Positions 2,340 to 56,461 of a stretch of DNA of 64,000 nucleotides are shown here, piece after piece. Below the pieces are notes generated by a model. It had not been told where the DNA came from. It worked only from the letters and a program-made list of their open reading frames with translations, and did not search any database. Within the stretch, counting starts at the first letter, position 1, and each line of letters begins with the position of its first letter. A program made the translations under genes and the position numbers. Source of the DNA: Candidatus Gastranaerophilales bacterium (lineage in GTDB: Bacteria; Cyanobacteriota; Vampirovibrionia; Gastranaerophilales; Gastranaerophilaceae); contig CALURJ010000008.1 in assembly GCA_944323145.1 (NCBI GenBank), positions 10,727 to 74,726 of the forward strand, given 5' to 3'.

Positions 2340-2349
2340 GGGGGGGGGG
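2340..2349 (+). repeat. G10 homopolymer tract (candidate slipped-strand phase-variation site)
   Basis: Ten consecutive G, 30 nt after ATG 2310. G11 or G8 would fuse the ATG to the pilin frame. G10 gives a stop at 2355. Confidence 0.8.
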
Positions 2350-2587
2350 CACTTTAGGCTCTGCCGGAGGCTCAGAGGTTAAGAGGTCAGGAAGGCAAGC
2401 AGTTATCTGCGTGCATAGCACGCAAAAAAATAAATTCCTTCCCTTATTAGGGAAGGTTTGGCAGGGTTTCAATTATGCTGTTTTTCTACCCACCCCTAAC
2501 TTCTATGTTATAAAGAAGTGGATGAGTAATTCATTGAAACGAACTTCTCGTCCTAACGTCTTATCGTCTTACCGCCCCAAAAAATGT
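2350..2587 (+). repeat. Leader cassette copy A (8-nt purine array, two GC hairpins, 8-nt array)
   Basis: Array ggaggctc/agaggtta/agaggtca/ggaaggca (2366-2406). Hairpins gcgtgc-ata-gcacgc (2409-2423) and ccttccc-ttatta-gggaagg (2437-2456). Array cgtcctaa/cgtcttat/cgtcttac (2545-2578). Shares modules with copies B and C. Confidence 0.6.
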
Positions 2588-3363
2588 GCGTTTACTTTGG
2601 CAGAAGTTTTAATCACCCTTGGCATTATCGGAGTAGTTTCTGTACTTGTATTATCGAGTGTAATCCCTTCAATTCAGGACAAACAAAATATCGCCAAATG
2701 GAAAAAAGAATATTCTGTCATAAATAATGCCTTTAATGCAGTGTTAGCAAAAGATGTAACAATATATGATCAGGGAGGATATACAGATGAATTTGTTGAT
2801 GCTTTTCAAAAGGAATTACGTATAGTTGATTACTGCGGTATTAGTGCGGATGATGTTCCATCAGATAAAATATGTGATAATTTTAATACATATAAAAACG
2901 TGAAATACAAGTGGTCAGGGGTTGCAAATATCTATTCCCGTTACAAAGCTCTGGGAGTAAGAACAGAATCGAATCCCGGCAGTTATTCCCCTTATGGGAT
3001 CCAGGCATATAACTTTAGCAGACTTGCCCTTCTATTAAATGATGGAGCAGTAATATATTTAGGTGAAAGTCATGGTGGCCCTTGGATAGTCGTTGATGTA
3101 AATAATTTTAATAAAGGCCAAATGAATTCGGTCGTGATGTATTTGTAATCCATGTATCCTCTAACATATCGATAGGTAGATATAACCTTCAGGCAATGGG
3201 TGCTGAAGGTACGTATAACAAAGCCTCGAATGGAGATATTTGTGAGTGTTCCAAAGATAAAGGAAAAAAGTCTGCAACTTATATAGGTGATGCGGCGGGT
3301 TCAAATGGTGAAGTAATCTCCGGTGCCTGCTGTTCCGCTAAATATCTTCTTGAATAAGTTATT

Positions 3364-28764: not shown

Positions 28765-28791
28765 GGCGAGATAAGCTTTGCTTATCCCGCC
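28765..28791 (+). terminator. Hairpin terminator
   Basis: ggcgagataagc-ttt-gcttatcccgcc, a 12-bp stem with one mismatch, 13 nt after the stop codon. Confidence 0.45.
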
Positions 28792-28868
28792 CTACTATTC
28801 TCTTATAATACAGTATTGAAAGAATTAGTTGGTATAATTTCCGAAAAGCGGCAGATCAAAAATTAAAA

Positions 28869-29927
28869 TTACTTGTAACTCTCTAAAAGCATTTGTTTAG
28901 ATGTCTTGCCGCCTTTTTCAACTGTATTCGCCCCGCATGAAATGCCTGAATCAACTTTCAGATTATAGCCGTCAGAAGAGCTAATCCCAAATTGAAACAA
29001 ATCGTATCCCCATTTATTAGGCCCTTTTCTACCGTTAATGTCTATGGCAAACATTGGATAGCTTCCTTCATAACACCACATCATTATGGTACCGTCTGAT
29101 AGAACCCAGACCATATTCGAATTTGAAATTGAGCTTTTTGTAAAGCAGGTGCAGCCTTTAGTAGAATTTTCAATTTCTTCTTCTGTTGCGTCAGGATTAT
29201 TTTCCGCAAAAATTTCATTATTCCCTTTGTATTCAGGGATACAGCCGTTGTTCAATGCATTCCCGTTACATTCTTTTATTATTGACATGTTTTTCTTTAG
29301 TTCTTGAGCCGCAGCTTTGCATTTTCTGCTTCCATCGCTAGTATTTCCTGCATGGTCGGGATAATAACATTCCGGAGCGTAGCCTAAATTATATTCTAAA
29401 GTTTTGTATGCATTTTGAATGGTGTTATAACTTTTTAAAAATTGTTTTTGCAAAACTTTTTGCTGATATTTCGCAGTAACCGCAGGTATAGTCATAGCCG
29501 CGACCACACCGATAATTCCGAGGGTGATAAGTACCTCCGCCAAAGTAAATGCAGCTCGACGGATATTGTGAGAGTAGGCTACGTGCGCAGCACCTTCTCC
29601 TGTGGGAGAGGGATGGGGTGAGGGTTCTTTTTCCCCTCCCTTGAGGGGAGGGGAAGTAAAGGGGTGGGTGAGATCAGAAGAACAGAAGACCGGAGGGCAG
29701 GAAGTCAGGCTAAAATTAGATGCAAAGATGCAAGGATGCATAGAGGCAAAGCTATTATCAATAATAAATTTTGTCCATGTTTTACCTAAATAGCTATAAA
29801 CGAAAATAGCCTGACCTCTTGACCTCTTGACCTCCGACCTTCCATCTAGCAACTTAGCTGCATCAATTTCTATCGTGTACGCGCTTTCGGGGGGGGGGCC
29901 GATTTTCAGCTGGTCATTCTCAACCAT
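28869..29927 (-). CDS. Pilin-like protein B with prepilin-type N-terminal motif and about 125-codon leader (phase-ON)
   Basis: RBS AAGAGGAG (29943-29936) and ATG 29927. A C10 tract is read as GPPP. The ORF stays open through the GC-rich cassette into RRAAFTLAEVLITLGIIGVVAA (motif at 29553-29533). The C-terminus has DINGRKGPNKWGYDLF, shared with locus A. The true start is uncertain. Confidence 0.6.
   Translation of the reverse strand: MVENDQLKIGPPPESAYTIEIDAAKLLDGRSEVKRSRGQAIFVYSYLGKTWTKFIIDNSFASMHPCIFASNFSLTSCPPVFCSSDLTHPFTSPPLKGGEKEPSPHPSPTGEGAAHVAYSHNIRRAAFTLAEVLITLGIIGVVAAMTIPAVTAKYQQKVLQKQFLKSYNTIQNAYKTLEYNLGYAPECYYPDHAGNTSDGSRKCKAAAQELKKNMSIIKECNGNALNNGCIPEYKGNNEIFAENNPDATEEEIENSTKGCTCFTKSSISNSNMVWVLSDGTIMMWCYEGSYPMFAIDINGRKGPNKWGYDLFQFGISSSDGYNLKVDSGISCGANTVEKGGKTSKQMLLESYK
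29554..29888 (-). repeat. Leader cassette copy B
   Basis: Gene-sense modules in order: ggaaggtc/ggaggtca/agaggtca/agaggtca array, about 70-nt AT-rich core, gcatcctt/gcatcttt/gcatctaa array, pyrimidine array tgacttcc/tgccctcc/ggtcttct/gttcttct, hairpin cccctccc-ctcaa-gggagggg, and a small gtgc-tgc-gcac hairpin. Confidence 0.65.
29889..29898 (-). repeat. C10 (G10 on + strand) homopolymer tract in the 5' coding region
   Basis: Ten consecutive G on the + strand, 27 nt after ATG 29927. At this length the ORF is in frame. Confidence 0.8.
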
Positions 29928-30718: not shown

Positions 30719-32183
30719 CTCTCTCCTCTTTAAATAATCCTACATTATATTTTTTACAATATCTTTTTAATTCTTTCATGATTACATCAGATAACATGAA
30801 TACTGCTATTAAGTTTGGCACAGCCAAGAATAAAGTAAATGCATCAGATAGATTAATTATACTTTTAAAGTTCATGGCAGAACCTATAATAATGAATAAA
30901 CAATATATAACCTGAAAAGTCCGTGTTGTCAATTTTGTATCGCCAAATAAATAATTCCACGCTTTAATTCCGTAATATGAACCGCAAAGCATTGTGGACA
31001 GTACAAAACAACTTGCCATAAATGTTAACAAAATCGGGAAAAACGGACATACACTTCCGAATGCTTTAGATGTTAATTCAATGCCTGCAATACCTGTTGT
31101 ATTCAAGTATTCACCGGAAACAACTATGACAAAAGCGGTCGCAGAGCCTACAATAACAGTATCAACAAAAGGCTGAAGCATTGCAATAAAGGCTTGAGCA
31201 ACCGGATTATTTGTTTTTACGGCGGAAAATGCAATAGGAGCAGTTCCAAGCCCTGCTTCATTTGCGAACATTGCACGGCGAAATCCCCATAACATGCACA
31301 TCATCCATCCGCCGGCTAATGCTTTTGGATGAAATGCTTCTTTTAAAATTACACTGAATGTATGAGGAACATGTCCAATATTATACAGACAAACTGCAAA
31401 AGCTGTGAGAACATATAAAGTGCACATAACCGGTGTTACTTTTGAAGTAAATTTTCCTATAGCTTTTATCCCGCCGATTATGGTAAAATAGGTTATAACT
31501 GCAACTATTAATCCTAAAAGCCAGCTTTGATGAGCAAAAAAGCTATTTTCTCCGCCGGTAACTTCAGTAAGCTGGGTTGTCATTGCATTTATTTGGAATA
31601 AATTCCATCCGCCTATCATTGCAAAAATACAGCATACGGCATAAATTTTTGAAAGATGCGGTGCAAATTTTCCTATGTATTTGTTATTTTTTAAAGCTCC
31701 CTCAATGTAATACATTGGCCCGCCCGCTATTGTTCCGTCAGGATTAACTTTACGAAATTTCAATCCGAGAAGAACTTCCGCAAACTTTAAAGCCATTGAG
31801 AAAAAACCGGCCATAATCATCCAAAAAATGACACCCGGCCCGCCTATTGATACGGCAGCAGCAGATCCTGCAACATTTCCTATTCCGGCAGATGCTGAAA
31901 TTGTTGCAGTAAGAGCCTGAAATGATGAAACTTCGCCTTTTTTCTTTTTAACACGTATTTCTTTATGTTCGTAGTTTTTAGTAATCAGTTTAATTGCGTG
32001 TTTAAATCCCCAAATTCCGATAAAACGAGTTCTGATTGTAAAATAAAATGCGGCAATCATTAAAAGGGCAACGAGAAATTCAATTCTAACCCCGTTAATG
32101 GTGATAGAACTAAAGATAATCCCTGAAATTTTATCGGCTATCGGAGATAAAAATGTATCTATGGCTGTGTCTAAATTCATCAA
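30672..32183 (-). CDS. Alanine/glycine:cation symporter (AGCS family)
   Basis: 503 aa, polytopic. The GGPGVIFWMIMAGFF and FANEAGLGTAPIA motifs are typical of AGCS. Confidence 0.9.
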   Translation of the reverse strand: MMNLDTAIDTFLSPIADKISGIIFSSITINGVRIEFLVALLMIAAFYFTIRTRFIGIWGFKHAIKLITKNYEHKEIRVKKKKGEVSSFQALTATISASAGIGNVAGSAAAVSIGGPGVIFWMIMAGFFSMALKFAEVLLGLKFRKVNPDGTIAGGPMYYIEGALKNNKYIGKFAPHLSKIYAVCCIFAMIGGWNLFQINAMTTQLTEVTGGENSFFAHQSWLLGLIVAVITYFTIIGGIKAIGKFTSKVTPVMCTLYVLTAFAVCLYNIGHVPHTFSVILKEAFHPKALAGGWMMCMLWGFRRAMFANEAGLGTAPIAFSAVKTNNPVAQAFIAMLQPFVDTVIVGSATAFVIVVSGEYLNTTGIAGIELTSKAFGSVCPFFPILLTFMASCFVLSTMLCGSYYGIKAWNYLFGDTKLTTRTFQVIYCLFIIIGSAMNFKSIINLSDAFTLFLAVPNLIAVFMLSDVIMKELKRYCKKYNVGLFKEERDENEERLSGDSKLKV

Positions 32184-32229
32184 TTTAATTATACAACAAA
32201 CAAAATATTAATTTATTTTAAAACATAAG

Positions 32230-32500
32230 ATATGTTATTAGAAGTCGATAAGTCGATAAGACGTTAAGACGTTAAGTCATTACGGTGCGCTTCGCGCACG
32301 TAAAAATTTTCCTTCCCTAGCTAGGGAAGGCTAGGATGGGTGATAATTAGAGGCGAAGAGGCATAGATGCTAAGAGGCAAAGCTAGTATCAATAATGAAT
32401 TTTGCTGCAATTTTACCAAAATATCTATAAATGAAAACAGCCTGCCCTCTTACCCTCCTATCCTCTGTAGGCGTATATTTCCCTCTCTTGAGAGAGGAAA
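32230..32500 (-). repeat. Orphan leader cassette copy C (no pilin body)
   Basis: Collinear with copy B: purine array ggatagga/gggtaaga/gggcagg, a near-identical AT-rich core, and a gcctct arrays module. Then hairpins ccttccc-tagcta-gggaagg (32311-32330) and gtgcgc-ttc-gcgcac (32285-32299). Then exact 8-mer tandem repeats agtcgata x2 and agacgtta x2 (32242-32285). Contains in-frame stops. Confidence 0.65.
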
Positions 32501-32518
32501 ATATACTAATAACATATC

Positions 32519-33295
32519 TTATGACACTTTTGAAAGTGTATTGTTATTCACATGATTTACAAGTGCTTTGAAAATAAAAGGATGGAGTTTTCCTTCTTTT
32601 ACATCCTGATAAATTATTGTCAATGCCTGTTTAGGGCTCATAGCCTCTTTATATACGCGATTTTCAGTAAGTGCAGAATATTTATCCGAAGCAGAAAGAA
32701 TTTGCAGGTTTAAATCTGCATTAAAATCATTGCCTACCCAAGGATATCCTGTTTTTTTCGCATTTTGATGATGATTACGCACAAGATTCAATGTTACTGG
32801 TGAAATATCTGTTGTTTTAAGCATTTCATACCCGAGTTGAGAGTGCGTATGCATAATTTTTATTTCGTTCTCGTCGAGTTTTGCGGCTTTGTTTAAAATA
32901 TTTTCAGGAATTAGGACTTTGCCTATATCATGAAGATATGCAGCGTCATCTATGGCTTTTAAGTCTACTTTATTTCTTAGAGAAAATGGTAAATTTTCAG
33001 CTATTCCTTTTGCAATTTTTTGAGTATCCGAGGCGTGCTTATTTAAAAGTTCTTTAAGTTCCTGGATATTTAACTGCATTTGCGGGTTAAAGTTTTTGAC
33101 AATTTTTTTAATTTTTGGATTGGAGTTAATCATTCTGTTTATCGCAGCTTCCGTTGTGTAACGCTCAACGGATTGTCTTTCAAAGGTGTCTGAAACACTA
33201 TTTTGACCGAAACCTGTATTATATCTGTTCCGGTTAATATAAATATTTGAACTTATTCCGCCCACACCAAGCGGTCTTGATATTTCCAGTCCCAT
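32519..33295 (-). CDS. HD-GYP domain protein (putative c-di-GMP phosphodiesterase)
   Basis: 258 aa. HDIGKVLIP...HTHSQLGYEML...HHQNAKKTGYPW motifs. Confidence 0.8.
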   Translation of the reverse strand: MGLEISRPLGVGGISSNIYINRNRYNTGFGQNSVSDTFERQSVERYTTEAAINRMINSNPKIKKIVKNFNPQMQLNIQELKELLNKHASDTQKIAKGIAENLPFSLRNKVDLKAIDDAAYLHDIGKVLIPENILNKAAKLDENEIKIMHTHSQLGYEMLKTTDISPVTLNLVRNHHQNAKKTGYPWVGNDFNADLNLQILSASDKYSALTENRVYKEAMSPKQALTIIYQDVKEGKLHPFIFKALVNHVNNNTLSKVS

Positions 33296-44526: not shown

Positions 44527-45129
44527 CTATATTTGTTTTATTATAACTAAATTCCTTGTATAGTTCTCTTCTAATGGTAAATTGTATTCAATTACATCAA
44601 TTACTTTTGCATTATATTTTTTTAGGGTTTGTTTTGCATCTGAAATTTCTTCTCCGGCTTTAATTGATTTATATGCCGCAAAATATCCGTCATTTTTCAA
44701 TAAAGGAATTGCATATTCAGTAATTGTTTTTAGAGGAGCAACCGCACGTGAGGTTATTATATTATATTTCCCTTTGATATTTTCAGCTCTGTCACATATA
44801 GTATGCAGATTTTCTATATTAAGTTCGGCTTTAATATTTTCAATTGCATTGATTTTTTTTCTTATACTGTCGAGTGCAAAAACTTCAATTTGCGGGCAGG
44901 CAATCGCAATTGGTACAGCCGGAAATCCTCCCCCTGTACCGATATCTAATAGAGTAAGCTCGGGAATTCCCGAAGTGTAATATTTATCAAAAAAATATTT
45001 GATTGCAAGGCTGTCAAATATGTGTTTTTCCCATAAATATTTTTCATCATTTTTTGAAATTAAATTGATTTTTGCATTCTGGTTAAGAAAAGAATGTATA
45101 TATTTTTCATAAAACTCTTTATTTTTCAT
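44527..45129 (-). CDS. rsmG: 16S rRNA (guanine527-N7)-methyltransferase RsmG
   Basis: 200 aa. LLDIGTGGGFPAVPIAI SAM motif and GidB-like overall pattern. Confidence 0.9.
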   Translation of the reverse strand: MKNKEFYEKYIHSFLNQNAKINLISKNDEKYLWEKHIFDSLAIKYFFDKYYTSGIPELTLLDIGTGGGFPAVPIAIACPQIEVFALDSIRKKINAIENIKAELNIENLHTICDRAENIKGKYNIITSRAVAPLKTITEYAIPLLKNDGYFAAYKSIKAGEEISDAKQTLKKYNAKVIDVIEYNLPLEENYTRNLVIIKQI

Positions 45130-47500
45130 AGTTTATTTCTTTCACTATTTTGTTAAATTTTTCTTCGCCTATTCTGAATTTTAAATCACTAATACGCATT
45201 TTGATTTTTGCAATATTTTCTTTAGTAAAGTTATTAACTGCAAGTTTGTAAGCATTTATATAATTTTGAAGCGACAATTCAAATTCTTTGCGGTTGTAGT
45301 AAAAATCTCCAAACGCTAAATCCGCCGAAGCTATATAGAATGTTTCATTTAATTCTTCTGCGCAGGCTCTGGCTTTTTTCAGATATTCAAAAGCTTTATC
45401 CGGAGATTTGAAAGAAAGTATTTCAAAAAGCTTCATGGATGATAAATATATTCCGTTGTAATTTTGAGTTAATTCGTCAAGTCTTAAGCTTTCGCCTAAG
45501 TATTTAACGGCAAGATCTGATTTCCCGTTTTCATCATATATTGTTGCGAGATTGGAAAGTGATGAAGAAAGGTATGTATTAATTTTTGGATCCTGTGAAG
45601 TTTCAACACATTTTTTATAATATGTTACGGCATTTTGTATATCTCCTTCTTCATCAAGGTTGAGGGCGTGTTTAAAATAAAGTTCTGCAAGAACAGGCTT
45701 TTCTATTAAATTTGTATTAACTGGAATAATATTTTTGACATTCTCGCCTGTTATTGACGCAAGAAGCAGTTCTGACTTTATTACTAAATTTTCGGAGAGT
45801 TTATCTTTTTGTTCTAAAATTTCATTTAATATTTTTTCAGCCCTGTCGCGTTTAAAGGTTATATAATAAATATTTGCAATTTCATATCTGCAATTTTCGA
45901 TTTTCTCAATATCGCCTGTTGACAGGTAAAATTCGGTTGCAAGTTCATAGTATTTAAGAGCATTGAACCAGTCAGACATATTTTTAAATGCTTCCGCGAG
46001 TTTTGTATACATTGTAGGTAAGAATGTATAATAGTCATCGTCGGTATTTAGAGTTAAGGCTTTCTGGTAAATCATCGCTACTTTTGGATAGTTGAAATTC
46101 TTTTCTTCCTGTTTCGCCAGGTTAATCAAATCTATCAGATGAAGATTTTTAATTTCCTCAAGTGTTTCTGAATTTTTATTTGAAATGTCTACAAAATTGT
46201 TTATTGAATTTGCAATTTTATTCAGGATTGCCATTTCATTTTCTTCCGATTCAAAAACAAAAGAAATATTTTTGATTTGTTCATCTTTTTCCTGTTTTGT
46301 ATGCGGTATTTCCTGAGTTTGAACTTTCTGTTCCATAAACTGAATTTCCGGAACAGGTTTTTGCGGCAGTACCGGTTTTTTAGGGATAAAAATACTGTGA
46401 TATTCAATTTCTTTGCGCATTGTTTGTCTGGATATGAGTAAATCTCTTTCCAGAGGTTTCAGCGGAAGCTGGGTGTTATAAAGCTCGACACAGTTTTTAT
46501 GAATTTTTACGGCAATATTTTCTGCGATAGAATTTTCCGCAATAACTTTATAATAATCCTGAAGATAAATTAGCGAACCCTCACGTGTTAAAACAAGATT
46601 ATCAACAAAGTAGCCTATTTTGTCTGCGTCATAGAGATTTAACGTTTTTAAAAGTTTTACATTAACCGGATGGCGCATAATTGTTAAAAATCTGAACAAA
46701 TGACCGCTCACGGGATCGACAAGTGATAAGCCCTCGCGCAGAATAAAGTCGTTAAAAGACAGAAAACTTTTTGTGTATCCCGATAAAAATTCTGTCAGAT
46801 TGAGTTTTCTTATCTGCATAATTTTGATTGAAAGAGTTGTGTATAAATAGTAGCCCCTTGTGTATTTGTAAAGTTCATCAGATAAAGGCCCTATCTGTTT
46901 AAAATCTTCTGATTTTAAATACTTTTCAAATATGCCTTTTTCAAGTGCGCTGACTGAAATTTTTTCGTAATCCGTTTTAAAATCGTTATAATCAAATTTT
47001 CTGCCTATCAAAATTATTTTAATATTTTTGTATTTGGAAAGGTGATAGATAAAATTTAAAATTTCCTGTTTATTGTCAATTATAATCTGTTCAAAGGAAT
47101 TAAGAACAATTACTACGGGTTTATCAATTGATTCAAAGTAAGCATTAATTTTTTGCGTAAAGTTTTCTGTTTTTGTTTTTGGAACTTTAATTACATTTTG
47201 AACGGTTAATTTTCTGAAATTATCAAAAAATTCAAGAAGAATGTCGTCAAGAATGGTGGTTTCAAAGCAGTTGTATCTCAAAGTAATAACATCTTCATTC
47301 AAAAAAGAAAGCGCCTGATTTACAACCATAACTTTCCCGGTGCCCATAAAACCGTTCACAATTAGCAAAGGAGTTTCTGATTTAAAGAATTCAAGTATTT
47401 GCTCAATTTTGTCTGTATTGTTTTCTATTAAAAACGGATTAATTCCGATATCCTGTTTTTGTATTTCTTTTTTATCGGCAATTTCTGCTATAAATTCCAT
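45119..47500 (-). CDS. P-loop NTPase (STAND/AAA_16-like) with C-terminal TPR repeats
   Basis: 793 aa. Walker A NGFMGTGKV, Walker-B-like VVIVLNSFE, and multiple TPR-like repeats in the C-terminal third. Overlaps the rsmG start by 11 nt. Confidence 0.6.
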   Translation of the reverse strand: MEFIAEIADKKEIQKQDIGINPFLIENNTDKIEQILEFFKSETPLLIVNGFMGTGKVMVVNQALSFLNEDVITLRYNCFETTILDDILLEFFDNFRKLTVQNVIKVPKTKTENFTQKINAYFESIDKPVVIVLNSFEQIIIDNKQEILNFIYHLSKYKNIKIILIGRKFDYNDFKTDYEKISVSALEKGIFEKYLKSEDFKQIGPLSDELYKYTRGYYLYTTLSIKIMQIRKLNLTEFLSGYTKSFLSFNDFILREGLSLVDPVSGHLFRFLTIMRHPVNVKLLKTLNLYDADKIGYFVDNLVLTREGSLIYLQDYYKVIAENSIAENIAVKIHKNCVELYNTQLPLKPLERDLLISRQTMRKEIEYHSIFIPKKPVLPQKPVPEIQFMEQKVQTQEIPHTKQEKDEQIKNISFVFESEENEMAILNKIANSINNFVDISNKNSETLEEIKNLHLIDLINLAKQEEKNFNYPKVAMIYQKALTLNTDDDYYTFLPTMYTKLAEAFKNMSDWFNALKYYELATEFYLSTGDIEKIENCRYEIANIYYITFKRDRAEKILNEILEQKDKLSENLVIKSELLLASITGENVKNIIPVNTNLIEKPVLAELYFKHALNLDEEGDIQNAVTYYKKCVETSQDPKINTYLSSSLSNLATIYDENGKSDLAVKYLGESLRLDELTQNYNGIYLSSMKLFEILSFKSPDKAFEYLKKARACAEELNETFYIASADLAFGDFYYNRKEFELSLQNYINAYKLAVNNFTKENIAKIKMRISDLKFRIGEEKFNKIVKEINYEK

Positions 47501-47590
47501 AAGGTAATATTAATAGATTTCTTAAAATTTTGCAAATCAAATATTTTTATAGTACAATCTTATTATATATTATAACTTAAGGGGAACAGG

Positions 47591-47695
47591 ATGGAATTTT
47601 TCAGAAAACACCAAAGAGCTATTGTCGCAATTATTGCGGTAACTTTTATCGCATGGACTGTAGGTTTAATGATGCTGCCTCTTCTGGTTAAATAA
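47591..47695 (+). CDS. Possible small membrane protein (34 aa)
   Basis: RBS AAGGGGA 7 nt before the ATG. MEFFRKHQRAIVAIIAVTFIAWTVGLMMLPLLVK has a single TM helix. Not in the ORF track because it is too short. Confidence 0.3.
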   Translation: MEFFRKHQRAIVAIIAVTFIAWTVGLMMLPLLVK

Positions 47696-47706
47696 ATTAC
47701 GGATTT

Positions 47707-48831
47707 ATGGATATAAAAACTTTTATAAAAAGATTACTTATAGTTGTGTTGGCATTGCTTATAGGCAATGTAAACCTGATTGCCCGGGCTGATCAGTTGA
47801 AGAATATTCAACAGAAACAGCGTGTTACGCATGAAAAAATTAAACGTTTAAAAGTCCTTGAACATCTTGAAAAAAACAAGCTGTACAAAAATCAGCAAAA
47901 ATTAGAACAGGCCTCAAATAACCTTCAATCTTCCCAGAACAGATATGCCGAGCTTGAAAGACAGCTTGCACAGATGGAGAGAGATTTAAATGCTTCAATT
48001 ATAGAGTTTAATAATGCAAATGTCCAAATGCGAAAAAGAATAAGACAGGTTTATAAAAATCAACGAACGGGCATGTTTGAACTTATTCTTTCTGCAAAGG
48101 ACTTGAATTCACTTTTGGATGTTCTTTATTTTGAAAAAATAGTTTTGAAAAAGGATTACGCCCGTATTCAGGCTGTTAAAGCCAAATCGCAGCGTATAGC
48201 TGCTATGAAAAAAGATGTTGAGTCTAAAAAAATTGCTCTGGCACAGTCAATAAATGAAATAAATTCTCAGAAAAAGGATATAAAATCTGCTATTGCTATG
48301 AACCAGAGCATGATTAACAAATATAAAACTGATCGTAAAACTTATGAAAGGGCTGAAAGAGAACTTGCGCGTCAATCAGCAAGTATTCAAAGTATGATTG
48401 CGCGGAATAAAGGAAGTTCAAATGTCAGGGTTAGTTCTACAGGCTTTTTGAAACCTATATCCGGAAGAATAACTTCTCCTTTCGGGTGGAGAACACACCC
48501 TATTTTTAACAGCAGGACTTTTCATTCAGGAGTCGATATTGCAGGCCCGAACAAAGGTCGCATAATTGCCTCAAATTCCGGAAAAGTTATATATTCCGGA
48601 TGGTATGGCGGTTACGGTAAAGTTGTAATTTTGGATCACGGAATTGTTAATGGTAAACCGACAAGTACTCTTTATGCGCATATGTCATCAATAAGAGTCG
48701 GGCAGGGACAATTTGTAAACAAGGGCGAAGTTGTAGGATATGAGGGGACAACCGGTTACAGTACAGGGCCTCATGTTCATTTTGAAGTAAGAATTAATGG
48801 AAAACCTAACAATCCGTTAAACTATATTTAA
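47707..48831 (+). CDS. M23 family metallopeptidase with coiled-coil N-domain (EnvC-like)
   Basis: 374 aa. Signal anchor, long coiled coil, and M23 motifs HSGVDIAGP and GPHVHFEV. Confidence 0.85.
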   Translation: MDIKTFIKRLLIVVLALLIGNVNLIARADQLKNIQQKQRVTHEKIKRLKVLEHLEKNKLYKNQQKLEQASNNLQSSQNRYAELERQLAQMERDLNASIIEFNNANVQMRKRIRQVYKNQRTGMFELILSAKDLNSLLDVLYFEKIVLKKDYARIQAVKAKSQRIAAMKKDVESKKIALAQSINEINSQKKDIKSAIAMNQSMINKYKTDRKTYERAERELARQSASIQSMIARNKGSSNVRVSSTGFLKPISGRITSPFGWRTHPIFNSRTFHSGVDIAGPNKGRIIASNSGKVIYSGWYGGYGKVVILDHGIVNGKPTSTLYAHMSSIRVGQGQFVNKGEVVGYEGTTGYSTGPHVHFEVRINGKPNNPLNYI

Positions 48832-48843
48832 GAAGGCAGGAAA

Positions 48844-51063
48844 TTGAAAAAGCATTTATTTTTAACATTATTAATTTTGGCGTTGGTTCCTTGTTCCGTT
48901 AATTCTCAGGAGCTTGTAAACAGTCCTGCCGATTTGGAACAGGTGTTTAATGAAACATTTTATGAGGCTCCTTTTATGCCGCTGCCTGAAGTTGAGGTTA
49001 AAAGCGGAAATCAGACTAATCCGGTAAGAGGCACCCCTGTATTTAAAAAGGTTCGTATAAAAGTTACAAATTATTTACGTGAAAGGGATTATAAAAAAAC
49101 TCAGGAATTAATTGAAAAGGAAAAACAGCTTCAGGCACAGCAGGAAGCTCAAGATGAGGCTGTGTTAAATAAAGATTTAAATATTAATTTCAAAGAAACA
49201 AAAAAAGAAAAGAATGTTTCTGCTAAAAAACGGGATAACAATGAGAAAATTGAAGAAAGTTCAGAACAGCAGGAAAAAACTTTAGAACTTGAAGGAGGAG
49301 TCAAGGAACAGGTAACATCAAACAATGTTCTTCTTGACGCTGATAATATTGATTACGATGATGAAAATCAGAATATTACTGCAACGGGAAAACCTATTTT
49401 AAAATTCCCTCAGCAGAATGTGATTTTAAAAGCCGATAAAATGATTTACAACAAGGATTCTAATATTCTGAAAGCATACGGAAATGTTGAACTTGTCAGA
49501 GACGGCAGTACTATGTACGGCGATTATATGCAGGTCAATATGAATGAAGAAAGCGCTTTTATGGATAATATGAATACCAAGCAGTCATTCATGACGGTAA
49601 CAGCGCGAAAATCCGAAATGGAAGGAGATAAAATAATTCTCCATGACGGAAAGATAGAGTCAAAAGAGTCATATATATTAAACCTGCAAACGAAAATGAT
49701 CGGCGGAAATAACTTTAATAACATGATTATTAACGACGAGGATAGGTCGTCAATTGCTGATGATGTAGGGGATACTTCCATTCATGTTAAAGCAAAAGAA
49801 ATTTTTGTGAATGCAAAGAAAAATAATGACGTAATTACCTTGAAAAAGGCTCAAATCAGATACGGGGATTATGACCTATTTACAATTCCTTCTATTACTG
49901 CGCATACAAATAAAAAACGGGAATTTTTTGAGGCTAACTATCCGGAATTTGGTTCCCGCGGTAAGCTTGGTATGTATATAGGCCCCGGTTTTGTATTTGA
50001 TACTCCTTTGCAGGACGGGTCAACTGTAAAGATTTTGCCTATTTTGAATAATAAAAGCGGTATAGGTTTCGGCGGTTTGTTGAAATACCGAAGTGCTACA
50101 AACTACACTGATTTGGGTTACGGCTCATCTGCAGATATATTTATGATGAAAGGTAAACAATACTTTGATGATAAATTATATATGCAGTACGGTGTTAATT
50201 CATATATGGATGAATGGTTCTTCGGACCGAGAATGCCGAAGTATATGGCCGAATTAGTATATAAAGACAGAACTATTGTTCCTTCCACCATTCATGACGG
50301 TTTGGATTTGACATTTAGTCATCGTTTCGGAATTGGTTATATGCAGAATAACGATGCAAACAGACATGGTGAAAATATTGCTCCTGCTGATATTGGAACG
50401 TTAAGAACTAGATATATGGCAGAAGTAAGCCAGTCATTGTTTAAATATCATGATAAAGAGCATCTAAGATATTTGGATTTGGCTTTTGTTATGCAGGGAA
50501 GCGCCGCTTTATACGGAACAGGTGATACTCAATTTGTAGGAAGATTAGGTCCCAGAGTGCATACCCAATATAAGTACTGGATGCAGGATATCGGTTTTTT
50601 TGCAACTGCATATCAGGATGGTACTCCTATGCAGATGTATGATATGTACAGATACGGACATGCAAGCGTTTATTTAAGAGAGGCACTGCGTGTACACAAA
50701 TATGTTACTCTTGCCTGGTCAGGTACTTTAACTCTTACAGGTGATTCTCCGAATGGTGAAATGTTTCAGGAAAATTCATTTATTATCGCTTTAGGGCCTG
50801 ATGATTTTAAGATTAATTTCGGTTATGACTGGGTGCGCCGTCAGACTTATTTTGCTTTTGTAATTGCGATGGATACGAAAGGTTCTTCTCTTGAATTTGA
50901 TAAAATGGTTATAAAAAATCCTGACAGACTTGCAAAGAGTGACAGAGAAGAACCGGAATTGAAAGTTTTTGATGAAGAAAATCAAACTCAGGCATCTCAA
51001 GCTAAAAAGATGATGTATGCAGAAGTTATTGAATTAGAGGACCCTGATAAGGAATCGATATAA
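48844..51063 (+). CDS. lptD: LptD/OstA-like outer-membrane LPS assembly protein
   Basis: 739 aa with a TTG start and a signal peptide. OstA-like N-domain (LLDADNIDYDDENQNITATGKPIL...ADKMIYNKDSNILKAYGNVEL...GDYMQVN), then an aromatic-rich beta-barrel-like C-terminus. Confidence 0.6.
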   Translation: MKKHLFLTLLILALVPCSVNSQELVNSPADLEQVFNETFYEAPFMPLPEVEVKSGNQTNPVRGTPVFKKVRIKVTNYLRERDYKKTQELIEKEKQLQAQQEAQDEAVLNKDLNINFKETKKEKNVSAKKRDNNEKIEESSEQQEKTLELEGGVKEQVTSNNVLLDADNIDYDDENQNITATGKPILKFPQQNVILKADKMIYNKDSNILKAYGNVELVRDGSTMYGDYMQVNMNEESAFMDNMNTKQSFMTVTARKSEMEGDKIILHDGKIESKESYILNLQTKMIGGNNFNNMIINDEDRSSIADDVGDTSIHVKAKEIFVNAKKNNDVITLKKAQIRYGDYDLFTIPSITAHTNKKREFFEANYPEFGSRGKLGMYIGPGFVFDTPLQDGSTVKILPILNNKSGIGFGGLLKYRSATNYTDLGYGSSADIFMMKGKQYFDDKLYMQYGVNSYMDEWFFGPRMPKYMAELVYKDRTIVPSTIHDGLDLTFSHRFGIGYMQNNDANRHGENIAPADIGTLRTRYMAEVSQSLFKYHDKEHLRYLDLAFVMQGSAALYGTGDTQFVGRLGPRVHTQYKYWMQDIGFFATAYQDGTPMQMYDMYRYGHASVYLREALRVHKYVTLAWSGTLTLTGDSPNGEMFQENSFIIALGPDDFKINFGYDWVRRQTYFAFVIAMDTKGSSLEFDKMVIKNPDRLAKSDREEPELKVFDEENQTQASQAKKMMYAEVIELEDPDKESI

Positions 51064-51064
51064 T

Positions 51065-51691
51065 ATGAGCATGTTAAATGATTTAAAACGTGAATTAATT
51101 GAATATGGAAAACTTGCCGGAATAAAAAATTTTACTCCAGGATATTCCGGAAATATGTCAGCAAGATTTGAAGATAAAATATTGATTACATCAAGCGGAA
51201 GTGCAAACGGATATTTATCAGAAGAAGAACTTGTGTTAATGGATTTTAAAGGGAATTTGGTCGAAGGGGATAAAAAGCCTTCTTCCGAAAAAATGCTCCA
51301 TGTTGAATTTTATAAGCGACGTCCGGATGTTAACTATATAATTCATGTGCATTCTCCTTATTTAAGCTCCTTTGCCTGCTGCAGAATACCTTTGGATGAG
51401 CCTGTAATGGCTGAAAATGTTTTCTATTTCGGTCAAATCCCTCTGGCAGATTACGGACTGCCGTCTTCAATGGATCTGGTTGAAAAAACTGCAAGATATT
51501 TTAAAGACTATGATGCTGTTTTGATGGCGAACCATGGTTTTATTGTGGGTGATAAGACTTTGAAAGATGCTTTTTTAAAGCTTGAATTGGCTGAGTCTTA
51601 TGCACAGGTTGTATTTAATACCAAAATGCTCGGCGGAGCGAAACTTTTCACGGATAAAGAAGTCGATGAGATAAACGCCTTGAAAAGATAA
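51065..51691 (+). CDS. Class II aldolase/adducin-family protein
   Basis: 208 aa. GNMSAR, HVHSPY and MANHG motifs. Confidence 0.8.
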   Translation: MSMLNDLKRELIEYGKLAGIKNFTPGYSGNMSARFEDKILITSSGSANGYLSEEELVLMDFKGNLVEGDKKPSSEKMLHVEFYKRRPDVNYIIHVHSPYLSSFACCRIPLDEPVMAENVFYFGQIPLADYGLPSSMDLVEKTARYFKDYDAVLMANHGFIVGDKTLKDAFLKLELAESYAQVVFNTKMLGGAKLFTDKEVDEINALKR

Positions 51692-51732
51692 TAATTGTGA
51701 TATAATAATTCAAGTAAAAGAGGAAAATAAAA

Positions 51733-52548
51733 GTGTCATTAATGTTGGAAAATAAACAAGGATTAATAGCCGGTGACGGAACTTTGCCTGTAAAAATGGC
51801 TCAGTATGCAAAAGAAAACGGATTTGATGTTGTATGTATTTCTCTTGCAAATGATAATTTGAAACAGTTGAAAAAATATTGTTCAAAGGTTTATTCCTGC
51901 CATCCCGGCGAAGTAAACAGAATAGAACAAATACTCAAAGATGAACAGATAAAACAGGCAACTTTTTTGGGTAAAGTGCATAAACGCGTTTTGCTGCAAT
52001 TGCATAAATTTGATAAGCGTGCGATTGAACTTTTGCAGGAAGCGCAGAGACTTAATGATGATCAGGTTATGCTTTTGATTGTAAAAGAATTCGAAAAAGC
52101 GGGAATAACAGTTTTGGATCAGACTATTTTTATCAAAAATCTTATGATACCGTCGGGTGTTTTAGGAAAAATTAAGCCTACAGAGGCTCAGATGGAAGAT
52201 GTTAATTACGGGTTCTGGCTCGCTAAAGAAATGGGAAAAATCGATGTCGGTCAATCTGTTGTGATAAAAGATAAAATGATTATGGCAGTAGAGGCAATAG
52301 AAGGAACTGATATGTGTATAAAACGCGGTTCAAAACTTGCGAAGAAAAATGCGGTTGTCGTAAAAGTTGCTAAACCTTCACAGGACAAACGATTTGATAT
52401 ACCTGCTATAGGTTTGAAAACTCTAAAGACAATGAAGAGATATAAAGCTGATTTAATTGCAGTGGAAGCTAATGAAACTATTATTGTTGATCAGGAAAAA
52501 GTTATTCAATTTGCGGATGAAAACGATATTGTTATAATGGCTGTATAA
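51733..52548 (+). CDS. lpxI: UDP-2,3-diacylglucosamine pyrophosphatase LpxI (DUF1009)
   Basis: 271 aa. LIAGDGTLP, VGQSVVIKDKMIMAVEAIEGTD and RFDIPAIGLKT motifs. Immediately upstream of lpxB. Confidence 0.8.
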   Translation: MSLMLENKQGLIAGDGTLPVKMAQYAKENGFDVVCISLANDNLKQLKKYCSKVYSCHPGEVNRIEQILKDEQIKQATFLGKVHKRVLLQLHKFDKRAIELLQEAQRLNDDQVMLLIVKEFEKAGITVLDQTIFIKNLMIPSGVLGKIKPTEAQMEDVNYGFWLAKEMGKIDVGQSVVIKDKMIMAVEAIEGTDMCIKRGSKLAKKNAVVVKVAKPSQDKRFDIPAIGLKTLKTMKRYKADLIAVEANETIIVDQEKVIQFADENDIVIMAV

Positions 52549-52549
52549 T

Positions 52550-53674
52550 ATGAAAAAAATTTTTATTGTAACGGGAGAATATTCAGGCGATATACATGCA
52601 TCTCATGTTGTAAAAGCTTTGCGCTTAATTAATCCAGATATAGAAATAGAAGGTGTAGGCGGAGATAATTTGAAAGCCTCCGGTGTGAAATTATTTTCTG
52701 ACCAGAAAAAAATGGGTGCTGTAGGGGTATCTCCATCAATAATATTTAATCATTTGATTCTCGGGAAAAAAATAGTAGATTATTTAACAAAAGAGTATAA
52801 ACCTGATTTAGTTTTGCTGATTGATTACGGAGCATTTAACCTTAATATTTCAAAATTTTTGAAAAAAGCAGGGATAAAAGTGTTTTATTACATTCCGCCG
52901 CAGGTTTGGGCAAGCAGAAAATGGCGGATTAATACAATTAAGAAAAATATTGATGAAGTCTTATGTATATTTCCATTTGAAAAAGAAATGTATGAAAAAT
53001 GCGGTATAAAAACTCATTACTGCGGTCATCCCCTTGTATCACAGCTGCCTGAGAAAGCTGACAAAAAAGAATTTTTTGAAAAACACGGATTTGATGTTAA
53101 TAAAAAACTTGTTTCGATTTTCCCGGGTTCAAGGGAGTTTGAGTTGAAATATTTAATGAAAACTTTTATAAAAACTGCGGAAAATCTTCAAAAAAAACAT
53201 CCTGATTTGCAGTTTTGTATTTCACATGCACCTAATTTGCCGGATAAAGTTTATGACAAGTATTTGAAAAATGCTGAATTTAAAGTTATAAAAGGTGAAA
53301 ATCAGTCTTTATTAAGTGTGTCTGATGCATTAATTCTGGCCTCGGGAACTGTTGCACTGGAAGCCTGCCTTTATCAAACTCCTATGATAATTGCATATCG
53401 GGGACCATGGTTATTTTATTTAATTTATCTGATTGTAAGATGTATTAAACGCGTTTCTTTACCCAATATCATTGCGGATAAATTAATTGTCCCCGAACTT
53501 CTTATGGCTGATGTGAATGTGCCAAAAATTTCTTATGAAATAGAAAAACTTCTTTTTGATGACAAGTACAGGACAAATAATATTAAAGAACTCGGGACTG
53601 TAAAATCGCTTTTATCTGATAAAATTTCCTCTAATGAGGCTGCAAAAGTTATAGCGGAAGCTGTTTCTATTTAA
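52550..53674 (+). CDS. lpxB: Lipid-A-disaccharide synthase
   Basis: 374 aa. IFIVTGEYSGDIHA, YYIPPQVWASRKWR and SGTVALE motifs. Confidence 0.9.
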   Translation: MKKIFIVTGEYSGDIHASHVVKALRLINPDIEIEGVGGDNLKASGVKLFSDQKKMGAVGVSPSIIFNHLILGKKIVDYLTKEYKPDLVLLIDYGAFNLNISKFLKKAGIKVFYYIPPQVWASRKWRINTIKKNIDEVLCIFPFEKEMYEKCGIKTHYCGHPLVSQLPEKADKKEFFEKHGFDVNKKLVSIFPGSREFELKYLMKTFIKTAENLQKKHPDLQFCISHAPNLPDKVYDKYLKNAEFKVIKGENQSLLSVSDALILASGTVALEACLYQTPMIIAYRGPWLFYLIYLIVRCIKRVSLPNIIADKLIVPELLMADVNVPKISYEIEKLLFDDKYRTNNIKELGTVKSLLSDKISSNEAAKVIAEAVSI

Positions 53675-53748
53675 TAATATGTAATAAAAACGCAATTTTC
53701 GGCTTTTAAAAACGTTAATAAATATAGGTAGTAAAAGTTTAGAAAGTT

Positions 53749-55386
53749 ATGATTAATCAGGTTACATCTGTTGGCAGTTCCCAAAATCCCGCATTTAGTG
53801 AATTCAAACAGCCCAAAAACGGCTATTATATTAGTGCGCCTTTTGCAGAACAGGTGAATGAAAAGAAAAGTCATACACTCGGGAAAACTCTTGTTGCCTC
53901 TGCCCTTGTAATAGGTTTTGGTACGTTGGCAATTCTCAGCGGCGGTGCTAATAAAGGTTTTGCTAAATTTTTGAATAAATGGAAAACAGATCTGGAAAAG
54001 AAACTTGCAAAAGGAACAAAGTTTGAAGATTTGTTCACTTTTTTGCTTAATAAAATAAGAGCTTTTCAGGCTAAGACGGAAAGTGTTAACAATTTTACTA
54101 CCTTAAAAGATGTGGCATTTCAACGTTTAATGTGGGGTAAAAACGGTGAACGCAAGTTTACGCGCCGGATACATCAGTCAATAACAAATTTCTTTGACAG
54201 AATAAGCAGAAAAACTGTAAACAGCTATTATAATAAAGCAAATACTAAATTTTCGGAATTGTCAGATCATTTTGCCGTTATTAATGAGCGTTTAAGGCTG
54301 GAAAACCCAAATGACCCTAAAATTCTGACTGCATTAGATGAAATATCCAGAAGAATGAAGGTTGTAAACAGTAATTTTAGCAAAGGTTTTGGTATAAATG
54401 CCAGAAATGAACGTTATATGGAAATACAAAGCGCCTGCGATGGCTTATTTGACTTCTTCTGGGATGCAAGTATAAAAGATGTCAGAAATTTTAAATCAAA
54501 AAACATGTGGCAGTCATTTATTGCCGAAGATTATTTAATACCCGCAAAACGTAAACTGTCAAATAAAACAGGTATATTAAGACAGTCCTTTACGCATGAT
54601 ATCAATGATAACTATAAAGCTACGATGAAAGCCGTATCTAATATTCAGGAGTTTGTTAACCCTGCAGATACTTCAACAAATGATGTCCTCCGCAGTTTGA
54701 GAGAAAATCTTGAAAAGTATAAAAAATTGTCCGGTAAAAATGAGGCAGCACAAAGAAATATTTTGAACCAATCAATTATTGCGGATTTAAAAAATCTTTC
54801 AAATAAATTTAAAGCTTCTTCCGGTAAATATAATTATAGTGCTGAATCTGTAGAATCGATTTCAAAATATATACATGAAGTGGAAGATATAATATCTCAA
54901 ACTGATAAAGGCGAACTTCAGGAAATTTTGACGATTTACAAGCGGCTTCTTCCAAGGAAAGAGTATTTGAGGTTGCGCTCTCAGGCTGAATCTGCCGTAA
55001 AATCTCTGGATAAGGCTATTGATATAGAAACAAACCAGTATGTTGATAAGGCTCGAGATTTAAGGCTCGGCTCGGCTCCTACCGATGTGCTTTCAATTCT
55101 TGGTACAGTAGGAACAGTCGGCTATTTCCTTAATAAATCGGATAACAAAGATGAAAAATGTTCTGTAGCAATAAAATACGGTATTCCGGCAATAGGAGCA
55201 ATTGCAACTTCTCTATATTGTACTGCAAGACTTGTGGCAGGTGGAAAAGCTTTACTTTTCGGTTTGGTTTCAGGTTGGCTTATGAATAAAGCGGGAGTTC
55301 TTGTTGACGATGCACGTAAAAAATATTCGTTAGATATTTCTTTAACCAATAAAAACCTTGTAAAATCTCAACCGGACAAAGTATAA
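53749..55386 (+). CDS. Hypothetical membrane protein
   Basis: 545 aa. One TM segment near residue 50, a long helical region, and C-terminal TM helices. No family recognised. Confidence 0.4.
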   Translation: MINQVTSVGSSQNPAFSEFKQPKNGYYISAPFAEQVNEKKSHTLGKTLVASALVIGFGTLAILSGGANKGFAKFLNKWKTDLEKKLAKGTKFEDLFTFLLNKIRAFQAKTESVNNFTTLKDVAFQRLMWGKNGERKFTRRIHQSITNFFDRISRKTVNSYYNKANTKFSELSDHFAVINERLRLENPNDPKILTALDEISRRMKVVNSNFSKGFGINARNERYMEIQSACDGLFDFFWDASIKDVRNFKSKNMWQSFIAEDYLIPAKRKLSNKTGILRQSFTHDINDNYKATMKAVSNIQEFVNPADTSTNDVLRSLRENLEKYKKLSGKNEAAQRNILNQSIIADLKNLSNKFKASSGKYNYSAESVESISKYIHEVEDIISQTDKGELQEILTIYKRLLPRKEYLRLRSQAESAVKSLDKAIDIETNQYVDKARDLRLGSAPTDVLSILGTVGTVGYFLNKSDNKDEKCSVAIKYGIPAIGAIATSLYCTARLVAGGKALLFGLVSGWLMNKAGVLVDDARKKYSLDISLTNKNLVKSQPDKV

Positions 55387-55417
55387 CATTTCGGCCTGTT
55401 TTTGTTAAAATTCTGGT

Positions 55418-56446
55418 ATGGAAAAGACTGAACAAACAATCAAATACAAATTAGAAGAGCGTGAAATAAATAATTTATCGGAATTCGCGACAAAAAGCAG
55501 ATTTACAAAAGGAAGAAAGCGCCCAGAGGAACCATGTAATTTGCGTACGGAATTTCAGCGTGACAGAGATAGAATTTTGCATTCAAAAGCTTTTAGAAGG
55601 TTAAAACATAAAACGCAGGTGTTTCTTTCTCCTTTTGATGATCATTTCAGAACACGCTTGACTCATACGCTTGAGGTTTCTCAAATTGGAAGAACTATTG
55701 CAAGAGCGCTTGATTTTAATGAAGATCTTGTTGAGGCTATAGCGCTGGGACATGATTTGGGGCATACTCCTTTCGGCCACTGCGGGGAAGGTGTGTTGAA
55801 CGAACTCGTAAAAGGCGGGTTTCACCATAATATACAAAGTGTAAGAGTTGTAGAGGTTCTGGAGGATTTAAATCTTTGTGCGGAAACTATTGACGGAATT
55901 TTAACCCATACCTGGGGATATAAACCTAAAACTCCTGAAGCACAGATTGTTCAGCTAGCTGATAAAATTGCTTATATAAATCATGATATTGAAGATTCAA
56001 TTCGTGCCGGTATTATTTCTGAAAGTGATTTGCCAAAAGATTGTATAAGCTATTTTTCATCGGTTCAGAGCAAAAGATTAAATAAAATGATTAATGAAAT
56101 TGTATTAAATTCAATAGGCAAACCTGTTGTAGCTATGAGTGAAGAGGGTTGGCATTATACAACTAAACTCAGGGAATGGATGTTTGATAACGTATATGTT
56201 GATTCTCCTGCAAAATTAGAAGAAAAGAAAGCAAGAAATGTAATAAGGGAATTGTTTTTTCTTTATACTGATATGCTAAAGCCGTTGTGTGAGGAAAATA
56301 AAATAGAAAGGATTGTAACCGATTATATTTCCGGCATGACTGACAGGTATGCAATAGAAAAATACAAAGAGAACTTTATTCCGGAAGGCTTTCATTCTGA
56401 TAAAAAAGATGATTATCTGTTTAAACTTGCAAAAATAATAAATTAA
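55418..56446 (+). CDS. dGTPase-like HD-domain triphosphohydrolase
   Basis: 342 aa. FQRDRDRILHSKAFRRLKHKTQVF, RTRLTHTLEVSQI, GHDLGHTPFGH and DRYA motifs. Confidence 0.85.
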   Translation: MEKTEQTIKYKLEEREINNLSEFATKSRFTKGRKRPEEPCNLRTEFQRDRDRILHSKAFRRLKHKTQVFLSPFDDHFRTRLTHTLEVSQIGRTIARALDFNEDLVEAIALGHDLGHTPFGHCGEGVLNELVKGGFHHNIQSVRVVEVLEDLNLCAETIDGILTHTWGYKPKTPEAQIVQLADKIAYINHDIEDSIRAGIISESDLPKDCISYFSSVQSKRLNKMINEIVLNSIGKPVVAMSEEGWHYTTKLREWMFDNVYVDSPAKLEEKKARNVIRELFFLYTDMLKPLCEENKIERIVTDYISGMTDRYAIEKYKENFIPEGFHSDKKDDYLFKLAKIIN

Positions 56447-56461
56447 AATTATAATATTTTT

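Follow-up and report, generated by a model that had tools for sequence, protein, structure and literature searches.

The subject of this report is a short non-coding element, here called cassette C, found in a stretch of 64,000 nucleotides from Candidatus Gastranaerophilales bacterium (contig CALURJ010000008.1, positions 10,727 to 74,726; the whole stretch is referred to below as the window). Cassette C lies in a gap of about 335 nt between two genes called as open reading frames (ORFs) on the minus strand: an HD-GYP gene upstream (32519-33295; Pfam HD_5/HD) and a gene for an AGCS alanine:cation symporter downstream (30672 to 32180/32183; Pfam Na_Ala_symp), whose ATG is located at 32178-32180. 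A preliminary description of the window had noticed that this gap holds a cassette collinear with the leader of a pilin gene, pilin B, in the sense orientation of the symporter, and our analysis bears this out. The cassette is present in the interval then given for it, 32230-32500, but the true unit is larger, comprising 300 nt (32224-32523, minus strand) between the HD-GYP stop codon and a promoter-like block of the symporter, with its upstream arm overlapping that stop codon. Three properties had been overlooked: a bracket of 18-nt inverted repeats, the empty state of the same junction in relatives, and variation in the number of tandem units. [quoted passage not shown]

The bracket of cassette C consists of perfect 18-nt inverted repeats. 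Reading along the minus strand, on which all its parts are described, the element opens with the upstream arm CATAAGATATGTTATTAG (32506-32523), which includes the HD-GYP stop codon (32519-32521), and closes with the downstream arm CTAATAACATATCTTATG (32224-32241), a sequence that also brackets a related element at locus L118 and that covaries across six elements. By our own estimate, the chance expectation of such an 18-nt inverted repeat in the 335-nt gap is about 1e-6. Next to the upstream arm stands hairpin HP-a, tatattttcctctct / agagagggaaatata, with 16-nt arms (32473-32506), of a type that adjoins the bracket in L118 and L086 and is also found in the pilin leader of L005. It is followed by a purine-rich 8-mer-type array, cagaggataggagggtaagagggcagg (32441-32472), which pairs across an AT-rich core with a pyrimidine-rich array (32349-32379) that includes a 16-nt unit, GCCTCTTAGCATCTAT, of strain-variable copy number. 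The core itself (32380-32440, about 60 nt) is shared with the pilin B leader and contains a promoter-like match, TTTTCA-16-TGgTAAAAT, directed at the symporter. Next come the terminator-like hairpin HP-b, CCTTCCCTAGCTAGGGAAGG and then AAAATTTTT (32311-32330), with variants in pilin A, in the leader of L005, and at L045 and L118, and hairpin HP-c, cgtgcgcgaagcgcacc (32284-32300). Finally, a tandem 8-mer array, (CTTAACGT)2(CTTATCGA)2 (32242-32276), constitutes a variable-number repeat homologous to the array that precedes the prepilin motif of pilin A.

Cassette C is not a coding sequence. The stop codons reported earlier in the frame used by pilin B extend to all six frames, and the translations then quoted are exact, sense frame 2 giving RGQAVFIYRYFGKIAAKFIIDTSFAS followed by a stop, and LNVLTSYRLIDF with two stops on either side. 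No ORF leads from a Shine-Dalgarno (SD) sequence and ATG into a prepilin motif (FTLAEV...); copies A and B do run on into pilins. As had been stated, no prepilin motif and no pilin body follow the cassette. Its RNA is predicted to fold with -109.8 kcal/mol (z = -8.0). A search of the whole window against Rfam at gathering thresholds returned tRNA-Leu as the sole match, and a search of 32000-32700 at E up to 10 gave sub-threshold noise only. Blastn of the cassette found one 41-nt chance match among plasmids and none among phages. No recombinase, transposase or invertase is present among the called genes within about 6 kb.

The resemblance to the pilin leaders is confined to certain modules. The leader of pilin B (29552-29927, minus strand) starts at an ATG at 29927, carries a C10 tract at 29889-29898 and remains in frame to the prepilin motif at 29549; it contains the same modules as cassette C, with the core at about 29742-29813. 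The two sequences are 79% identical in a repeat search of the window (29714-29834 versus 32345-32465), 86% identical over 80 nt by blastn within the window (E = 3e-10) and 81% identical over 139 nt by local alignment, or about 81% over 122-139 nt overall, so that the core of about 70 nt, formerly called near-identical, is similar but not near-identical. The leader of pilin A (2311-2590, plus strand; ATG at 2311, G10 tract at 2340-2349, out of frame by one) has both hairpins in reversed order and an 8-mer array, and has no AT core. Its likeness to cassette C is restricted to the CCTTCCC/GGGAAGG hairpin type and to the 32-nt 8-mer array (2543-2574 versus 32246-32277, 84%), an array homology that agrees with the reported match between the 3' module of C and the PNVLSSYR piece just before the prepilin motif of pilin A. 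The reversal of hairpin order had likewise been described accurately: in A, gcgtgc (2410-2424) precedes ccttccc (2437-2456), while in C ccttccc (32330-32311) precedes gtgcgc (32300-32284). The 26 differences between B and C are split 6/9/11 on codon positions 1/2/3, without synonymous bias, and even two translated leaders, those of pilin B and L096, differ by 15/9/12 according to codon position together with a single 3-nt gap. The earlier suggestion of conservation at the nucleotide level is supported by both distributions, the second of which, moreover, shows by comparison of the two leaders that a pilin leader is kept open without constraint at the amino-acid level.

The history of the junction can be read from related genomes. 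The comparison set comprised 80 related loci from genomes, nearly all of them Gastranaerophilales or Melainabacteria metagenome-assembled genomes (MAGs), from outside the window species (best pilin identity 44%); all comparative DNA comes from metagenome assemblies, where the lengths of homopolymers and tandem repeats are unreliable. The gene order ApbA / HD-GYP / symporter / UDG is common to the window and to loci L092 and L093, whose symporters are 95% and 89% identical to that of the window. In these relatives the HD-GYP and symporter genes are separated by 31 nt and 25 nt, respectively, and the cassette is absent. Its absence from the relatives' syntenic junction shows cassette C to be an insertion specific to this lineage, located at the HD-GYP stop codon and just upstream of the promoter-like block of the symporter.

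Variation within the species was also observed. The window species is found in many gut assemblies of the ENA and Logan collections. In 14 assemblies from separate samples cassette C is present in one orientation and is otherwise nearly identical, although assemblies display the majority orientation only and a rare flipped state would escape detection. The tandem 8-mer array has the alleles AABB, AABBB, AB, ABB and AAAB, one of the contigs ends inside this array, and the 16-nt unit GCCTCTTAGCATCTAT is either present or absent. These differences are variation in tandem-repeat copy number among strains, presumably produced by slippage.

Cassette C has relatives with the same closure elsewhere in the order. 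The bracket of the family is of the type CATAA-N-ATATGTTAT, in inverted repeats of 15-18 nt (18 in C, 15-17 in five others). Exact copies of CATAA-N-ATATGTTA number 10 in a total of 1.36 Mb from Gastranaerophilales, against 0 in reversed-sequence controls. All ten occurrences form inverted pairs, five in number, whose starts are 278-857 nt apart and which delimit elements of 300-873 nt. Since L005 is a strain of the window species, the five pairs represent four independent loci, and two further, diverged bracket pairs bring the total to six independent elements. The five elements other than C measure 469-873 nt and belong to other Gastranaerophilales genomes. They occupy unrelated intergenic positions, after stop codons, between divergent genes, between co-directional genes and beside a convergent gene end, and the six elements show no constant orientation relative to genes.

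A metagenome scan with the 18-mer gave 28 matches, 27 of them chance matches in unrelated contexts and one a true relative, at L118. This locus is syntenic with window positions 44536-56452 (74% identity) and has, directly behind the stop codon of rsmG, an element of 489 nt with the same closing repeat as C. The 3' half of this element is collinear with C, with two hairpins, 'ccgtaatgactta', an 8-mer array of other sequence and the arm. The syntenic site in the window has a terminator only, which provides a second case of presence and absence. The interiors of the family share a patchwork of segments: 122 nt at 77% between C and L118, 87 nt at 77% between C and L081, 301 nt at 82% between L118 and L086, and 172 nt at 84% between L028 and L069. 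Some of these segments recur in pilin leaders as well, one instance being the 'PSPIGEG' hairpin (L028, L067 and L095).

The ends of these elements are perfectly or nearly perfectly complementary within each element and differ between elements. Over the six, 92.6% of cells are paired and 7 of 18 pairs have changed on both sides, a result equalled by none of 500 shuffles. This covariation shows that complementarity of the ends is maintained. A covariation analysis had been proposed as a check for RNA structure; pairing of the terminal arms is supported by it, but an RNA stem is not separable from terminal repeats at the DNA level, and the pattern is compatible with an RNA stem, with co-evolving DNA termini and with homogenisation by inversion.

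Several observations weigh against placing cassette C in a family of mobile elements. There is no target-site duplication, in the form of a flanking direct repeat, at any of the six elements; target duplications of MITEs decay with age (PMC10969869). One contig, CALUQH010000031.1, carries two bracketed elements 22 kb apart (L081, 12871-13377, and L086, 15653-16164) with interiors 71% similar, whose brackets differ at 4 of 14 positions while each is self-complementary, so that a single end-binding transposase is not an obvious explanation. An autonomous partner with matching ends was not found, bracket pairs 1-3.5 kb apart being no more frequent than the control rate; the proteins of these genomes were not screened. 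The window holds only one complete copy, blastn having detected no second one within its 64 kb. The status of a family leans mainly on the bracket and on partially shared segments, interiors being very variable. In addition, viral contigs scanned with the 14-base bracket motif gave single chance matches only.

The position of cassette C upstream of a transporter gene invites a regulatory interpretation, and the sequence next to the symporter is informative in this respect. A conserved block of 17-22 nt that ends in TATAAT, AATATTTTGTTTGTTGTATAAT (32188-32209, minus strand), lies outside the element and 7 nt before the symporter ATG, and is also found in relatives that have no cassette: it is kept in the window and in L092, and its last 17 nt are kept in L091, where the upstream gene is dnaE. 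The sequence TTTGTTTGTTGTATAAT is conserved 7 nt before the ATG, without a Shine-Dalgarno sequence, in the window (32178-32209) and in the L091 and L092 orthologues, and this arrangement suggests that the symporter mRNA may be leaderless. The TATAAT block is downstream of the cassette, which therefore does not lie between the likely promoter and the ATG, and the idea that it forms part of the symporter 5' untranslated region (UTR) is left without basis. Promoter-like matches in the cassette region number 4, against 3.7 expected from shuffled sequence.

These data bear on three rival explanations. According to one of them, cassette C is a dedicated cis-regulatory RNA: it would serve the symporter as a 5' UTR or as an attenuator, or else be a gene for a structured non-coding RNA, with conservation due to the fold. 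The very stable predicted fold (z = -8.0), the covarying terminal stem, hairpins that stay complementary although their stems differ among copies, and the sense orientation relative to the symporter are what such an RNA would present. Against a leader RNA or riboswitch, the orthologous position is empty upstream of symporters 95% and 89% identical, and Rfam gave no match; the -10-like block stands 3' of the cassette, family members have neither a common downstream gene nor a common orientation, and the interior varies in length within one species. We regard this explanation as very improbable, and the idea of a dedicated 5' element is not supported. A second possibility is an inverton, in which the 18-nt repeats would be the sites of an invertase, the 264-nt interior would flip to switch the symporter, by means of the promoter-like site that the core contains or of hairpins whose effect depends on orientation, and recombination would keep the arms identical. 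A repeat motif conserved at several loci around a variable interior, with arms perfect within a locus and compensated changes between loci, is typical of the invertons of gut bacteria. Most family members occupy promoter-proximal intergenic DNA, the core match TTTTCA-16-TGgTAAAAT faces the symporter, and the smaller AT core is found both ways round between the same flanks in different leader copies. However, all 14 independent assemblies share one orientation, no invertase is encoded within about 6 kb, the whole unit is an insertion missing from relatives, the symporter retains its own TATAAT block outside the element, and promoter-like matches are at chance level. On this balance an inverton is unlikely.

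The third rival sees in cassette C the remnant of a pilin expression locus that lost its promoter, ATG with poly-G tract and pilin body, the mosaic leader being left behind. The interior is collinear with pilin leaders and ends in a ...YVSEAH-like hairpin plus LNVLTSYRLIDF, which stands 3-4 codons before the prepilin motif in pilins P0061, P0071, P0085 and P0092. Pilin loci do turn over, pilin B being absent from L092 and L093 and replaced in L005, and at L126 a leader is fused to the 3'-flank motif of pilin B without a pilin body. Against such a remnant, the cassette fits exactly within its 18-nt bracket, which also closes non-pilin elements in other genomes, whereas the L126 remnant has no bracket and the bracket motif was not found in the pilin-leader regions of the loci scanned. 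A degenerate bracket was considered around the pilin B leader, where the spanning inverted repeat (14 nt, 79%) is too weak. At cassette C neither a promoter nor an SD-ATG, neither a homopolymer tract nor pilin coding sequence has left any trace, and two precise deletions would be needed in place of one insertion. We hold this origin to be rather unlikely, and we are similarly doubtful of a broader proposal, in which bracketed elements and pilin leaders would form one system of portable contingency cassettes exploited by the host. These would be recognised by structure, possibly invertible and equipped with hypermutable 8-mer arrays; because a step of 8 nt shifts the frame, the arrays would toggle translation of the disposable leader beside poly-G, and elsewhere, the symporter included, they would tune read-through or promoter context, the covarying and perfectly paired ends reflecting an undescribed mechanism that depends on hairpins or inversion.

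We thus return to a family of small repeat elements, which we favour as the probable explanation. In its members an inverted-repeat closure of 15-18 nt surrounds a variable mosaic of G+C-rich hairpins, an array-flanked AT core and 8-nt tandem arrays, and a pool of such small palindromic and tandem modules would assemble into bracketed, insertion-polymorphic elements of the MITE/BOX/BIME type. Cassette C was inserted in the lineage of this species, its tandem arrays later growing and shrinking among strains; the likeliest route of movement would be a trans-acting enzyme that recognises the paired ends. The earlier view of the cassette as modular, possibly mobile or recombining and not specific to pilins is supported by the empty orthologous junctions, by the related element at L118, by modules at non-pilin sites and by the two orientations of the core. 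By analogy with REP/BIME, BOX, Correia and ERIC repeats, a selfish character is probable. In an HD-GYP message with the cassette at its 3' end, the RNA would fold into a very stable multi-hairpin structure closed by an 18-bp stem, and comparable repeats suggest that such an end would impede both read-through into the symporter and 3' exonucleolytic decay. The local effect is likely to concern read-through and the HD-GYP transcript at its 3' end, and dedicated control of the symporter by cassette C is unlikely.

The same modules also sit, translated in frame, in the long leaders of pilins, which the prepilin peptidase would discard. Modules probably accumulate there because any open sequence would be tolerated in a cytoplasmic leader that is cleaved off. 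Near the prepilin motif of pilin B no start codon is found; the ORF extends from an SD-ATG over the C10 tract and 125 mosaic codons as far as ...RRAAFTLAEVLITLGIIGVV. Many pilin homologues possess extensions of 60-200 residues built of recurring pieces such as NVL[ST]SYRL, SSRFTLHSSLKK, PLKGGEKE, HPSPxGEG and FTLAEGATHVA, among others. Among the names attached to pilin B homologues are Candidatus Stercorousia, Scatousia and Gastranaerophilaceae. A protein search with the translated B leader retrieved 5 short ORFs only and no annotated family, and was informative on the orientation of the core. The AT core is forward in B, C, L096, P0243 and P0245 and inverted, between the same flanks, in L095, L126, P0241, P0242 and P0244; the inverted core of about 70 nt (L095, 10115-10182; L126, 3969-4036; P0241, P0242, P0244) is translatable in both orientations. 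Pilin-leader windows account for 5.9% of the DNA and for about half of all module sites, which there almost always have the sense orientation. Among the non-pilin sites are the groES/groEL intergenic region (L071), in two species (L039, L050) the region upstream of a gene for an M16-like peptidase, and other intergenic positions.

In most pilins of this order an SD-ATG, a poly-G tract and a long, unconstrained leader follow one another at the start. In the window there are just two pilin N-termini and just two G/C runs of at least 8 nt, each run just after a pilin ATG. Sufficient upstream sequence was available for 133 pilin N-termini, and 74 of them have a run of this length within 650 nt upstream; in 68 of these 74 no stop interrupts the frame between the run and the prepilin motif, and an SD-ATG just precedes the run in 67. 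The 74 pilin-associated runs are part of 92 such runs in 1.37 Mb. The tracts are mostly 10-11 nt long, reaching 13 nt (window 2340-2349 and 29889-29898; loci L011-L096). A tally of ON and OFF states gave 6 in frame and 61 out of frame, which is not to be taken at face value because tract lengths are unreliable and the prevalence of tracts of exactly 10 G/C may have a technical cause. Taken as a whole, this arrangement looks like order-wide phase variation of pilins by means of a disposable translated leader.

Individual pilin loci presented further peculiarities. At L005 (7940-9148, compared with 28869-29927 of the window) the promoter, ribosome-binding site and first codons are the same as in pilin B, and beyond them come a C13 tract, a leader mosaic that differs throughout and another pilin, of 402 amino acids, the breakpoint being at the homopolymer tract; this suggests replacement of a cassette at a fixed expression site. 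At L126 (3921-4307) an orphan leader ending in SSRFTLHSSLKK is joined directly to 'aatagtagggtgg...', a motif that in the window (28785-28800) lies about 70 nt after the pilin B stop, an arrangement suggestive of excision of the pilin body. L095 (10238-10315; also P0244) has a G+C-rich insert of 78 nt, exactly 26 codons, which splits the 5' arm of a ttcccctcccc/ggggaggggaa hairpin within the translated leader and is an example of a nested frame-preserving insertion. At L091 the UDG gene is followed by a pilin with a C10 tract and a short leader free of modules. Pilin A (2311-3360) is one base out of frame with its ATG at G10 and has a second frameshift near 3120-3148; its ORF ends in ...MYL and a stop, while homologous sequence goes on in another frame, so that it is either a pseudogene or an assembly error. 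Elsewhere in the window, an 82-nt direct repeat (63310-63391 and 63438-63519, 99% identical, spacing 128 nt) overlaps with its second copy the 3' end of tRNA-Leu(CAA) (63508-63593, minus strand), and may be the scar of an integrative element.

Recognition of this repeat family, undescribed until now in Gastranaerophilales, an uncultured lineage of the human and animal gut, has several consequences. It removes a tempting over-reading, since in cassette C we do not have a new RNA regulator of an amino-acid transporter, and it accounts for the odd N-terminal pilin extensions of 60-200 residues, which are translated by gene callers and kept in databases as protein. For strain typing, the 8-mer and 16-mer arrays offer ready markers, since they vary among strains. 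Furthermore, the link with poly-G tracts suggests that phase variation of surface filaments is widespread among these gut bacteria. Our search found no relevant literature on pilins, repeats or phase variation in Gastranaerophilales or Melainabacteria, and pilin phase variation through poly-G in this order looks like a phenomenon with no earlier report.

Compared with known systems, cassette C has some but not all of the features of a MITE. MITEs are typically shorter than 500 bp and have no transposase gene, and cassette C, with 300 nt, is within this size, while some relatives (469-873 nt) are above it; terminal repeats of MITEs measure about 4-30 bp, and those found here 18 nt in C and 15-17 nt in the five others. 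Empty sites exist for C (L092, L093) and for the L118 element (the window), and the target duplication is missing. As to copies per genome, there is one in the 64 kb of the window and there are two, diverged and 22 kb apart, on one MAG contig. With invertons the family shares perfect inverted repeats whose motif recurs from locus to locus, and an interior that measures a few hundred nt and lies beside genes; it differs from them in its single orientation, in the lack of a nearby invertase and in being an insertion absent from relatives.

REP elements (repetitive extragenic palindromes) and BIMEs (bacterial interspersed mosaic elements) of enterobacteria are intergenic mosaics of short palindromic units, often at the 3' ends of genes, that form stable mRNA hairpins. 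The C family resembles them as a mosaic of palindromic units in intergenic DNA; BIMEs, unlike this family, have no outer inverted-repeat bracket and consist of highly uniform units associated with RAYT transposases. Correia elements, the MITEs of Neisseria, duplicate a TA target, vary very little in their interior and number more than 100 copies per genome, whereas the C family has no target duplication, highly variable interiors and an apparently low copy number. Both have terminal inverted repeats around a short AT-rich centre and are found beside genes. The layout of BOX elements is boxA-boxB(n)-boxC. Transcribed Correia repeats form a stem cut by RNase III, and promoters and inversion have also been reported for them (PMC10969869). 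Rickettsia palindromic elements (RPEs) are palindromic repeats located in frame within coding sequence and translated (PMC10969869), as the C modules are in pilin leaders; RPEs are found in mature parts of housekeeping proteins, whereas here the N-terminal leader is presumably cleaved off and cassette C itself is in no ORF. BOX elements of Streptococcus pneumoniae, finally, are intergenic and modular, with complementary ends that form a stable stem-loop, and they cluster or nest with other small repeats (PMC10969869). The comparison with them is one of layout, no sequence relation being expected. The units are of 8 and 16 nt here and of 45 nt in BOX, the mosaic is freer here, and modules are also translated in pilin leaders; in both cases the element is non-coding, intergenic and modular, with a strain-variable number of internal units enclosed between complementary ends.

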